Shown here: positions 9,932 to 14,281 of the stretch, in pieces
Position numbering within the stretch: the stretch's first letter is position 1
Layout of the letters: the number at the start of each line of letters is the position of its first letter
IMG/VR virus record: IMGVR_UViG_2526164693_000019
Location: 1-18,180 of that record
DNA length: 18,180 bases
Strand: one strand, 5' to 3'
Origin: a virus
Taxonomy: Duplodnaviria > Heunggongvirae > Uroviricota > Caudoviricetes
Translations under genes and position numbers: made by a program
Notes under the pieces: generated by a model
Seen by the model: the letters and a program-made list of their open reading frames with translations, nothing else
Database searches by the model: none
What the model was told of the DNA's origin: nothing

Positions 9932-10241
9932 AAACGATTTGCGGGAAAAGGATAGTTAAGTAGAATTGCTGCGGGTGCTTGAGGCTATCTGCCTTGGGCA
10001 TGAACACCAAAGGCAGATAGAGAAAAACCCACCCGACTATAAATCAAAGTGTATTACCCCCATTTGTTGGACGATGAAATGGGTTTAGTTAACTATGTCG
10101 GTATCGACATGACTAAAACAACCTTAAATTGCTCGATTAATAGACAAGTAGTTTTGAAAGATTAAATTTATGCGATCCGGTATTTTCAAGGGATAGCCTT
10201 TATGAGGTTATCTTATGGGGTTAAAACATCAAGAACAGTTG

Positions 10242-10250
10242 TGTTATAAT
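10242..10250 (+). promoter_or_regulatory. Extended -10 promoter element (TGtTATAAT) upstream of the methyltransferase gene
   Basis: TGn plus a perfect TATAAT at 10245-10250, 32 nt upstream of ATG 10283; weak -35, as is common for extended -10 promoters. Confidence 0.45.
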
Positions 10251-10282
10251 ACATAGAAACTAATAAGAGACGTTGCAACTAT

Positions 10283-11434
10283 ATGAATGTAATAGATTTG
10301 TTTTCTGGCGTTGGAGGTCTAAGTCTTGGTGCTGCACGTGCTGGATTTGATGTTAAAATGGCAGTTGAAATTGATCAACATGCTATTAATACTCACGCAA
10401 TTAATTTTCCAAGAAGTTTGCACGTCCAAGAAGATGTTTCTTTACTAAATGCAGAAATAATTAAGGGTTTTTTTAAAAACGATATGCCCATAGATGGTAT
10501 TATTGGCGGTCCTCCGTGCCAAGGATTTAGTTCAATAGGCAAGGGGAATCCTGATGATAGCAGGAATCAGCTTTACATGCATTTCTACCGTTTAGTATCA
10601 GAATTACAGCCATTATTCTTTTTGGCAGAAAATGTTCCAGGTATTATGCAAGAGAAATATTCTGGCATTAGAAATAAAGCATTTAATTTGGTTAGCGGTG
10701 ATTATGATATTCTTGATCCCATCAAGGTAAAAGCATCTGATTATGGTGCTCCAACTATTCGAACTAGATATTTTTTTATCGGTGTAAAAAAATCATTGAA
10801 GCTTGATATTTCAGATGAAGTATTTATGCCTAAAATGATTGATCCGGTTACTGTAAAAGATGCTTTGTATGGATTACCAGATATTATCGATGCCAATTGG
10901 CAATCAGACTCTGAGAGTTGGCGAACAATTAAAAAAGATCGAAAAGGGGGATTTTATGAAAAATTATGGGGGCAGATCCCTCGGAATGTTGGTGATACAG
11001 AATCGATCGCTAAGTTAAAAAATAATATCATATCTGGATGTACCGGAACATTACATAGCAAAATCGTCCAAGAGCGTTATGCTTCCTTATCTTTTGGGGA
11101 AACTGATAAAATTTCAAGATCTACAAGATTAGATCCAAATGGTTTTTGCCCGACTTTAAGGGCGGGAACCGCTAGAGATAAAGGAAGCTTTCAAGCCGTC
11201 AGGCCGATCCACCCTTATCATCCAAGAGTGATTACACCAAGAGAAGCTGCTAGATTACAAGGCTTCCCTGATTGGTTTCGCTTTCATGTAACTAAATGGC
11301 ATAGTTTCAGACAAATAGGAAATAGCGTGTCACCAATAGTTGCTGAATATATATTAAAGGGGCTGTACAATTTATTAAATAAAAGAGTACAGCCCGAATA
11401 TTTAAACCATAATTCTTTGGAAGTTAGGGTATAA
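10283..11434 (+). CDS. DNA (cytosine-5)-methyltransferase (383 aa)
   Basis: Canonical C5-MTase motifs in order: motif I FSGVGG, motif IV GGPPCQGFS (catalytic Cys in PCQ), motif VI ENVPG, motif VIII-like TIRTRYFF, motif X QIGNSVSP. Strongly AT-rich codon usage compared with the flanking phage genes. Confidence 0.9.
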   Translation: MNVIDLFSGVGGLSLGAARAGFDVKMAVEIDQHAINTHAINFPRSLHVQEDVSLLNAEIIKGFFKNDMPIDGIIGGPPCQGFSSIGKGNPDDSRNQLYMHFYRLVSELQPLFFLAENVPGIMQEKYSGIRNKAFNLVSGDYDILDPIKVKASDYGAPTIRTRYFFIGVKKSLKLDISDEVFMPKMIDPVTVKDALYGLPDIIDANWQSDSESWRTIKKDRKGGFYEKLWGQIPRNVGDTESIAKLKNNIISGCTGTLHSKIVQERYASLSFGETDKISRSTRLDPNGFCPTLRAGTARDKGSFQAVRPIHPYHPRVITPREAARLQGFPDWFRFHVTKWHSFRQIGNSVSPIVAEYILKGLYNLLNKRVQPEYLNHNSLEVRV

Positions 11435-12391
11435 CCTATAGTATTTATAATAGTTATCCCGTTCATTTTCGTTTAAAGAGAACTCTTCAGCGGCTGCCTG
11501 ATATGCTTCTTTATCAGGCAGTTTACTATCTAAATTTATCTTTTCTTTAATTGTTAGTGTTGGTATTGCTATTTCTTGCACGTCTTCCCAATTTGTTGAA
11601 TAAAATTGCCAGTTAGAAAGGTCGCATGCCTTAGATAACTCTATATATTCTTGTTCTGAGGAGAAAAAACCTGATATTGTCAACATGGTATGACTGCCAT
11701 CATTATATTGATTTAAGGATAATGGGTAATACTGAATCTTATCCTTACGTCCTGAAAGACCACGTTCTATTGCTGATCTAAAAGCGTTTGTAATAATTCG
11801 TATTAAAAGAGCTTTAATCTTACGATCTGAAAGATCTGCATTTGATATCTGAAGATTAAAATCAAGATACTTTTTCCCAAGCAATGATTTTAATGAATTA
11901 ATAAAAGCTTCTTTAAAAATATCTAAACTTTCTCCAACTCTACGTTGGTAATAAGAACTAGGATTTATGGGGAAGGTGACCTTCAAAATATCAAAAGAGC
12001 TTACTTTAGTACTTAGTAAGTGTATATCATCTAGATCCGTTTGTATTTTTTTCGGGGAGGCATAGTCTAACCATGTTATTGATGGTTTAGAAAAACTATA
12101 ATCAAGAATAAAGTCATGAGCTGATATTAGCTTACAATCAATACAATTATAAGGCAAATTATATTTTTGTCTGATGTGAGTAGACTCTTGTTCTTCGAGA
12201 GAAATCATATCAGAAAGAGCGATACGATTATGCATGATTCTAAAATCTTCAAGCATCGGACCACCAAAACCTATATATGTATATTCTTGAATATTTAGTC
12301 TTTTGCTTAAGAGGTTTAGGCTTTCGAGAAAAATCTCTCTATCAATAGACTTATTATGCCTTAAGTGATAGGGAATGTATTGTCCAGACAT
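11402..12391 (-). CDS. Unknown-function protein (about 329 aa), translationally coupled partner of the GHKL ATPase; candidate effector
   Basis: ATG (plus 12389-12391) overlaps the GHKL gene's TGA (TGATG) with GAGGTG Shine-Dalgarno; the track's start at 12394 is an in-frame GTG. No motif I can assign; contains a G-x-G-G stretch (YIGFGGPMLEDF). Its 3' end overlaps the convergent MTase gene by 33 bp. Confidence 0.75.
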   Translation of the reverse strand: MSGQYIPYHLRHNKSIDREIFLESLNLLSKRLNIQEYTYIGFGGPMLEDFRIMHNRIALSDMISLEEQESTHIRQKYNLPYNCIDCKLISAHDFILDYSFSKPSITWLDYASPKKIQTDLDDIHLLSTKVSSFDILKVTFPINPSSYYQRRVGESLDIFKEAFINSLKSLLGKKYLDFNLQISNADLSDRKIKALLIRIITNAFRSAIERGLSGRKDKIQYYPLSLNQYNDGSHTMLTISGFFSSEQEYIELSKACDLSNWQFYSTNWEDVQEIAIPTLTIKEKINLDSKLPDKEAYQAAAEEFSLNENERDNYYKYYRLYPNFQRIMV

Positions 12392-13782
12392 CACTTCACC
12401 TCTTCAATCACCGTATCAAAGCATTGCATCCCCACATCAGAAGCGCTAGCATCTTCATGTCCAAAGAAATATTTAGATAAAATTTTAACATCTTCTTTCT
12501 CTCTGGTGAAGATTATTCGTACAGTAGAGCTTTTTTTTACTGGGGTAGGCAGCTTAGGTGTATATCGCCACTCATTTTTGTTTCTATTAGGGTTGGACCA
12601 GTTATTTTTTTTATCTTCTGGAGTTGATTGTGGGGTAATTTCAAATAAAGATTGAGCTTCATGTGACTGAGCTGACTTAAGTAATTTTTTCCCTTCTTCA
12701 AGATGCTCACCTTTCCACTGATTGGTGAATCGAATAAAATGCATCATCCCTTCAATCATTTTATTTCGTACATCATTGTACAATGTAGAACTAAGATCGA
12801 CACCTCGTTTCGTTGTTGTTATTGGTAATTTTTCTGGGTTTTTACTGGTAAAGCGAACAACCCCAGAAATTGCTATAAATTGGGTATGAAACCTTGGTAC
12901 ATTAGCAAAGCCCCAACCTGTGAGATGTGTCTTATCACAATATAGAACAACGCGGTCATTGCAAATGACAGTCCATCCAGCATCATCAGAACTCCTTTTT
13001 TCTAAAACATCATCATTGTCATCTTCTAAATTTTTATAGAAGCCAACAACTAAATCGATATCAACATCGTCTATTTTAGCTTTATATATGTATGGTTCTA
13101 TTTTAGAATGATCAGTTATGATGTTAATCGGATTATGTTCAACAACAACTCCATTTAATTCTATTTTAAATCCTTTTTGAATAATAAATGACAATGAGTG
13201 TTTTATCTGTAAAAAGAGATCAGTAAGATATGTGCTCTCATTAAATTTTTGTGCCACATTAGAATGGAGTTTTTTTATCTCTATAGTTGTGCCTGTTGGA
13301 TTTTTGTTATCATAGTCACTCTCGTGCATCGGTATTTTCCAACCATCACCATCGATCCAATCAGGTGTTATATCTACAGTGAATGCGCCATCGGGATTAT
13401 TCGATTGTATTGAGCAATCTCTACCCATTTTAAAAATGGCTCTTTTCATACCAATACCATAGACGCCAACGGTGCCTTCATTTTCTTCTTCTTTTTGATG
13501 GGGTCGTCCCATTTTAAAAGCATATTCTCGGAAGCTTTTAGGGATACCTCCGCAATTGTCTTCTATAATAAAGACATCTTTATTAATCGTAAGTTTCGCA
13601 TAAAATCCTTCATATGGTTTTGAAGTTTTTTTTGTGTCTTTTATTGTACGTAAAGCCCCATCGACGCAGTTATCAAGCAGATCAAGTATGGCATCGTTTA
13701 AGTCGATATCTCGAGTTAGCATACTTACAAAAAATCTTTTACTAGGACTAAAGTCTGCTGTTGGAGTCGTGTTCTCAGTCAT
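12391..13782 (-). CDS. GHKL/Bergerat-fold ATPase (MORC/MutL/Hsp90-like HATPase), 463 aa
   Basis: Ordered GHKL motifs: N-box LDLLDNCVDGA, G1 box IIEDNCGGI (DxGxG), G2 box GTVGVYGIGMK (GxxGxG), and TGTTIEI. About 290 residues C-terminal to these have no recognisable motif. AT-rich. Confidence 0.85.
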   Translation of the reverse strand: MTENTTPTADFSPSKRFFVSMLTRDIDLNDAILDLLDNCVDGALRTIKDTKKTSKPYEGFYAKLTINKDVFIIEDNCGGIPKSFREYAFKMGRPHQKEEENEGTVGVYGIGMKRAIFKMGRDCSIQSNNPDGAFTVDITPDWIDGDGWKIPMHESDYDNKNPTGTTIEIKKLHSNVAQKFNESTYLTDLFLQIKHSLSFIIQKGFKIELNGVVVEHNPINIITDHSKIEPYIYKAKIDDVDIDLVVGFYKNLEDDNDDVLEKRSSDDAGWTVICNDRVVLYCDKTHLTGWGFANVPRFHTQFIAISGVVRFTSKNPEKLPITTTKRGVDLSSTLYNDVRNKMIEGMMHFIRFTNQWKGEHLEEGKKLLKSAQSHEAQSLFEITPQSTPEDKKNNWSNPNRNKNEWRYTPKLPTPVKKSSTVRIIFTREKEDVKILSKYFFGHEDASASDVGMQCFDTVIEEVK

Positions 13783-13834
13783 AATTTACTCTCTATGTGT
13801 TTGGGAAAATAAATACCTTAAGTGCAAATTGTTG

Positions 13835-13862
13835 ATTTTAAACGCTTCGCATGCGAAGTCAA
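13835..13862 (-). promoter_or_regulatory. Candidate sigma70 promoter of the GHKL operon (TTGACT, 16-bp spacer, TAAAAT on minus strand) with a 14-bp perfect palindrome in the spacer
   Basis: Minus-strand -35 is the complement of plus 13857-13862 and -10 the complement of 13835-13840. Palindrome CTTCGCATGCGAAG at 13845-13858 spans the spacer and -35 edge. About 50 nt upstream of the ATG at 13782. Confidence 0.45.
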
Positions 13863-14281
13863 CGATGTTAAGAAAGAAAGTGCATGTGATCTAACAGTAT
13901 GTTTTTAAAAAAAGATTAGCTTTATGAGAATTCAGGACTGAATCCCGTGAGAGGAAAATAACATATGTTATTGTTGCATTGCTGTGTTGTTTGGGATTTG
14001 TTGCACCATTCTGGCGTTGGTATATCTAGTTCGTTGTTCATTTTGTTAATTGTACAACAGGCAGACAACAGAGAGCTTTTAGCCTAGTTAGCTTACGAAA
14101 TTAAACAACTAAGATTATCGGCGGGGAGTGGTCACCGCTACTCTTTGGCTAGGAGACTTCAACGCAACCGCACACAACCAGCTTCGGCGGGTTTTGTTTT
14201 TTCCTGGCATTCTGGTTTACAATTTGCGTGCTAGCTTGAACAACTGGCATCTGCTGCACTGCGCCATCGAGAGATTGAGAA

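Follow-up and report, generated by a model that had tools for sequence, protein, structure and literature searches.

The minus-strand sequence between positions 13862 and 13835 of the window (the entire 18,180-nucleotide stretch of viral DNA analysed here) is well supported, by comparison with related loci, as a cassette's own sigma-70 promoter, serving an operon that encodes a MORC-like GHKL ATPase and a Methyltransf_35 protein. The perfect 14-bp palindrome CTTCGCATGCGAAG embedded in this promoter is probably not a repressor-binding site. It is likely that the promoter is of an ordinary constitutive type and that the palindrome is an incidental feature of one allele.

Genomic setting of the cassette

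The window belongs to a lambdoid, Stx2-converting prophage of E. coli. The nin region of this prophage harbours the three-gene cassette (Table 1) as an AT-rich island, with replication genes on one side and the DUF1367/YbcO/Q genes on the other; its GC content is 30-38%, compared with about 50% in the flanking DNA. The window also encodes a ribosome-inactivating-protein A subunit and contains the AsxR and STnc100 sRNAs.

Table 1. Positions of the cassette genes, the promoter elements and neighbouring features in the window.
Feature	Position	Strand	Remarks
Methylase promoter, extended −10 (TGTTATAAT)	10221-10250	+	TTAAAA, 18 bp, TATAAT with TG motif (consensus scan)
C5 DNA cytosine methyltransferase gene, 383 aa	10283-11434	+	Convergent with the GHKL operon
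Methyltransf_35 gene, 330 aa	11402-12394	−	Second gene of operon; class I SAM-methyltransferase fold; 4-bp overlap with GHKL stop
MORC-like GHKL ATPase gene, 463 aa	12391-13782	−	First gene of operon; HATPase_c_3 (Pfam)
−10 hexamer TAAAAT	13835-13840	−	Consensus scan; TAnnAT in seven cassette lineages at a fixed 16-bp spacing
Perfect 14-bp palindrome CTTCGCATGCGAAG	13845-13858	.	In spacer and −35 edge; judged incidental
−35 hexamer TTGACT	13857-13862	−	Consensus scan; TTGAC invariant in seven cassette lineages
Degenerate hok/gef-type locus, phage backbone	13963-14260	+	Outside cassette; occupies the remaining intergenic DNA
DUF1133-type Q antiterminator	15048-15722		
Three tRNA genes	15862-16108		
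Shiga-like toxin B subunit	17173-17442		

Fold searches identified the product of the first operon gene as a GHKL+S5 ATPase, whose nearest structural matches are MORC3, SMCHD1 and MORC2, and assigned a SAM-methyltransferase fold to the Methyltransf_35 protein. A sequence search of solved structures with these two proteins returned no matches, no PADLOC model matched either of them, and Pfam detected no nuclease domain in the three cassette proteins. The Pfam DNA_methylase match of the C5 methylase begins at residue 1 of 383, and the alignment of its relatives starts at motif I. Of 155 loci examined, about 145 have the C5 methylase tightly linked to the GHKL ATPase, and the linkage extends over numerous bacterial phyla, viral contigs and one archaeal MAG. 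Two layouts predominate among the 155 loci: the genes are convergent, as in the window, in 73, while in 62 the order is methylase, GHKL ATPase and Methyltransf_35, all in the same direction. The 3′ ends of the methylase and Methyltransf_35 genes of the window share 33 bp (11402-11434), as they do in close relatives, and convergent transcription could couple the expression of the two.

Iyer, Abhiman and Aravind (2008, PMC2292703) predicted an association of paraMORC-type GHKL ATPases with cytosine methylases in restriction-modification-like operons. The cassette resembles these MORC/paraMORC systems in the conserved linkage of its GHKL+S5 ATPase to a DNA methylase. It differs from them in that the constant partner of the ATPase has a SAM-methyltransferase fold, and the cassette lacks a recognisable nuclease or helicase, the associated activity that would provide restriction; in addition, its ATPase could not be placed in any one of the paraMORC1-5 families. 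A literature search found no experimental study of the three-gene cassette, which is a more interesting object than the palindrome. As a by-product, the present analysis provides the cassette with a phylogenetically supported pair of promoters and with defined boundaries.

The predicted GHKL operon promoter

The preliminary description had proposed a near-consensus minus-strand promoter (TTGACT, 16 bp, TAAAAT) for the GHKL operon. The sequence is as described, matching the consensus at 10 of 12 positions in a consensus scan; it lies 52 nt upstream of the GHKL ATPase gene and ties for the top promoter score in the window, which contains 32 promoter-like sites against a mean of 32.0 in shuffled sequence. 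The assignment of the site to the GHKL operon is carried by the related cassettes, as the two hexamers and their 16-bp spacing are kept in seven lineages.

Diverged copies of the GHKL protein were collected at 87, 85, 83, 77, 75, 71, 70, 66 and 65% identity, and the footprint was drawn from seven distinct cassette lineages with 70-87% GHKL identity. The relatives occupy other lambdoid prophages (by DUF1367, holin or Q genes), a site at purB in Enterobacter and a site at an integrase. A scan of representative genomes with a single protein yielded no confirmed relative, and an alignment-based rescan of these genomes found relatives at 42-47% identity only, which were used for gene linkage and palindrome statistics and left out of footprinting. 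The island was absent from a phage collection searched at the DNA level, and a scan of metagenomes recovered identical copies only.

The pattern shared by the seven lineages is TTGAC(T/A), exactly 16 bp, and TA(A/G/T)(A/T/C)AT, at a distance of 43-65 nt from the start codon. For the −35 and −10 hexamers, mean pairwise identity is 0.90 and 0.76, respectively, compared with 0.39 for the spacer, 0.35 for the 25 bp upstream and 0.42 for the 25 bp downstream. Conservation of the hexamers relative to the spacer and flanks is, at the level of sequence comparison, a clean footprint of the kind left by a sigma-70 promoter. The hexamers are near-consensus at a spacing within the 16-18 bp range, and in orthologous upstream regions their conservation exceeds the neutral background. 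The similarity of the relatives to the window stops a few bp upstream of the −35 hexamer and, therefore, the promoter lies at the very edge of the AT-rich mobile cassette, an element of ∼3.65 kb that extends from about 10215 to 13868. Transcription driven from this site on the minus strand would start near 13828, which is calculated to correspond to ~2157861 on the + strand of NZ_CP008957.1 (E. coli EDL933). It would give a predicted 5′ untranslated region of about 46 nt and would proceed through the two-gene operon from the GHKL ATPase to the Methyltransf_35 gene.

The promoter complement of the wider family fits this arrangement. A sigma-70-like site matching the consensus at 9 or more of 12 positions precedes the GHKL gene in 35% of unique loci of the convergent type, but in only 1.6% of those in which the methylase is the immediately preceding gene and points in the same direction, which fits the GHKL operon needing a promoter of its own only in the convergent layout. 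On the opposite strand, the extended −10 element of the methylase promoter (TGnTAnA(A/C)T at 10242-10250) is conserved in nine of ten cassette lineages, while its −35 element is poorly conserved.

The predicted GHKL promoter shares several properties with the sigma-70 promoters of prophage accessory genes (morons) and restriction-modification cassettes, which likewise have a near-consensus −35 hexamer, 16-bp spacing and a TAnnAT −10 hexamer. Like these, it travels with its cassette, and it faces against the phage early transcript and so would be autonomous. It differs from them in that the predicted start has no entry among the starts covered here from the Cappable-seq list for E. coli EDL933 (PMC10469882), a strain whose copy of the cassette is identical to that of the window. 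Among the starts from supplement 6 of that study that were covered, to which thresholds had been applied, there is none for annotated genes between RS11220 and RS11390, and RS11260 (GHKL ATPase) and RS11270 (methylase) are both without an entry. Going by these starts, under laboratory growth the GHKL promoter may be silent or repressed; the absent start could equally reflect silencing of foreign DNA of 30-38% GC or the detection thresholds of the study (PMC10469882).

The palindrome in the promoter spacer

A direct sequence check established perfect dyad symmetry over all 14 bp of CTTCGCATGCGAAG, a palindrome that ends there as the next pair outwards (G at 13844 and T at 13859) is not complementary. 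It overlaps the last 2 bp of the −35 hexamer and 12 of the 16 bp of the spacer, and includes two CpG dinucleotides and the symmetric hexamer GCATGC (13849-13854). The length, the location in the spacer and −35 edge and the GCATGC hexamer all agree with the preliminary description, which had gone on to interpret the palindrome as a repressor operator. The dyad symmetry expected of an operator does lie over the core promoter, and a position over the −35 hexamer and spacer is a common one for repressor binding; furthermore, restriction-modification-like cassettes often need their non-methylase genes under control. The palindrome could be an operator that the E. coli allele acquired recently, at which a dimeric repressor encoded by the host or the prophage blocks RNA polymerase. 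We regard this as unlikely, on the basis of the conservation, frequency and regulator data below.

The palindrome is missing from every diverged relative, including the closest (87% protein identity) and those located in other lambdoid prophages. In the homologous 14-bp slot all seven pairs are complementary in the window allele only; the closest relative forms two of seven, and the others 4, 4, 1, 1 and 4. The symmetry of the site is, therefore, not conserved in orthologous promoters (one to four of seven pairs), and the spacer that bears it evolves like the DNA on either side of the promoter. The four closest lineages have in common C(T/A)(T/A)(C/T)-N6-(G/C)AAG within the slot, which is what common descent would leave. 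Within E. coli the cassette is present in 172-173 of 5,426 complete genomes, EDL933 among them, and all 173 of 173 copies are at least 99% identical; as they are nearly identical, these copies carry no information on whether selection maintains the palindrome.

The frequency of such palindromes was compared with chance expectation. The window contains three perfect palindromes of at least 14 bp, compared with 1.43 ± 1.24 in first-order Markov shuffles, and at least one is found in 75% of shuffled windows. GCATGC occurs five times, against a rough expectation of ∼4 for a hexamer in 18 kb. A perfect palindrome of at least 14 bp turns up in any one 120-nt upstream region with a probability of ∼1.2%, a rarity that would speak for an operator, but which is modest given that the feature was chosen post hoc among many. 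In 128 unique 120-nt upstream regions of homologues, palindromes of at least 14 bp occur in 1.6% (1.2% in the null) and those of at least 12 bp in 3.9% (3.4% in the null), and the longest perfect palindrome per region tracks the null distribution. Palindromes are thus no more frequent than expected by chance, either in the window or across the family.

Candidate partners for the site were sought in the cassette and the window. No second site resembling CTTCGCATGCGAAG was found in the window at up to three mismatches, the prophage immunity region included, and the window contains no other TTCGC-N0-8-GCGAA sequence. The preliminary description had noted that no regulator gene is obvious in the island, and this was borne out: Pfam finds only the three enzymes, in which it detected no DNA-binding regulator domain; there is no HTH, RHH or C-protein gene, and the methylase is without an HTH extension. 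The palindrome is, therefore, accompanied neither by a cognate regulator in the cassette nor by further operator copies in the window. CTTCGCATGCGAAG is not known to resemble any E. coli operator consensus. The lack of an entry for the operon among the listed EDL933 starts (PMC10469882) would suit a repressed promoter, but is as readily explained by the silencing or the thresholds mentioned above.

Because the palindrome is unconserved, at chance level and without a second copy in the window, the interpretation of the site as an operator is not supported. We infer that the promoter is active and, likewise, that the palindrome binds nothing; the latter is probably an incidental, allele-specific arrangement within a fast-evolving spacer and not a conserved operator. 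It is improbable that the E. coli allele has recently evolved a true operator through which a repressor, or the cassette's own C5 methylase, switches the MORC-like ATPase operon. Such an operator or methylation switch, if true, would link a DNA-modification or defence module to the physiology of the prophage or the host, and the switched operon would sit inside Shiga-toxin and related prophages. Conversely, taking the palindrome as an operator would aim bench work at what is probably a chance feature.

In two related prophages (L002 and L003), the GHKL gene is preceded at a distance of ∼230 bp by LexA-box-like sequences, CTGTATATATAAACAG and CTGTATGTATGAACAG (about 4760-4780 in each). These lie outside the cassette and have no equivalent in the window.

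Possible roles in methylation and RNA structure

Promoters in restriction-modification systems are regulated in several ways, which include C-protein operators, autorepression by methylases of the SsoII/EcoRII type and methylation of the promoter itself, as in CfrBI-type control, where methylation tunes the promoter. The GHKL promoter is similar to these in that a palindrome lies over the core promoter of non-methylase genes within a methylase-linked cassette. Unlike C-protein systems, however, the cassette has no C-protein gene, and, unlike the SsoII/EcoRII type, its methylase, matched by DNA_methylase from its first residue, has no N-terminal HTH extension. The palindrome also differs from the regulated promoters in not being conserved among cassettes, and the cassette promoters, in contrast to the CfrBI type, have no conserved candidate methylation motif.

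The last point bears on the proposal, also made in the preliminary description, that the palindrome is a methylation-sensitive element. In its most specific form, CTTCGCATGCGAAG, or its GCATGC or CpG sites, would be the target of the cassette's C5 methyltransferase, which would tune the promoter in the manner of CfrBI. The cassette does encode a cytosine methylase, and the palindrome does offer two CpG sites and the symmetric GCATGC. Residues 186-300 of the methylase, the target-recognition region that separates motifs VIII and IX, are 56-80% identical among relatives, with almost no indels. Because this region is as conserved as the catalytic parts and the rest of the protein, the alignment suggests that the relatives have one shared specificity. 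A target common to these enzymes is not apparent in their promoters, as no 6-mer is common to all seven; the 4- and 5-mers that are common to them occur only at or near the −35 hexamer (TTGAC) or in an ATCAA-type word after the −10 hexamer; and even among the four closest lineages the promoters have no palindromic word in common. On this indirect evidence, methylation of the palindrome is unlikely, slightly less probable than repressor binding, and the proposal is not supported.

It is highly improbable that the palindrome works as an RNA hairpin, terminator or cruciform on transcripts crossing it in either direction. A hairpin with a stem of 5-6 bp is possible, but it is weak (−5.9 and −4.4 kcal/mol; z = −0.36 and +0.21 relative to shuffles), no T-run follows it and a terminator scan is empty at this position. 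In addition, transcription of its own operon is predicted to start downstream of the palindrome, and a terminator of rightward early transcription here would cut off expression of the Q antiterminator and stx. A hairpin or terminator role for CTTCGCATGCGAAG was, therefore, rejected on the grounds of weak folding energy and the missing T-run. Rfam searches around the palindrome, at both gathering and permissive thresholds, returned nothing relevant. An ordinary sigma-70 promoter with an incidental palindrome thus remains the preferred reading of 13862-13835.

Neighbouring loci

The hok/gef-type locus has an intact, annotated homologue in E. coli C41 (L093, 2467-2592), which encodes a 41-aa Hok/Gef protein (Pfam HOK_GEF, 2.7e-12). 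Relative to the C41 gene, the window copy has lost 1 nt and is interrupted by a stop codon at 14047-14049. The 3′ part of the locus (about 14070-14250) is highly conserved, and matches to a ∼100-bp piece of it (14159-14257) occur in about 2,400 E. coli genomes. The second perfect palindrome of the window, AATAACATATGTTATT (16 bp, 13957-13972), is in the same intergenic region as CTTCGCATGCGAAG, at the start of the hok/gef-type locus, where the ATG that opens the decayed hok-like frame falls within it. The third, TTTTTACATGTAAAAA (17712-17727), adjoins the AsxR sRNA. The mechanically called open reading frame for Shiga toxin A (15989-17161, 390 aa) is over-extended and begins at a TTG in the tRNA cluster. 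The ribosome-inactivating-protein domain occupies residues 102-302 of this 390-aa frame, and the true start of Shiga toxin A is therefore downstream of the TTG.
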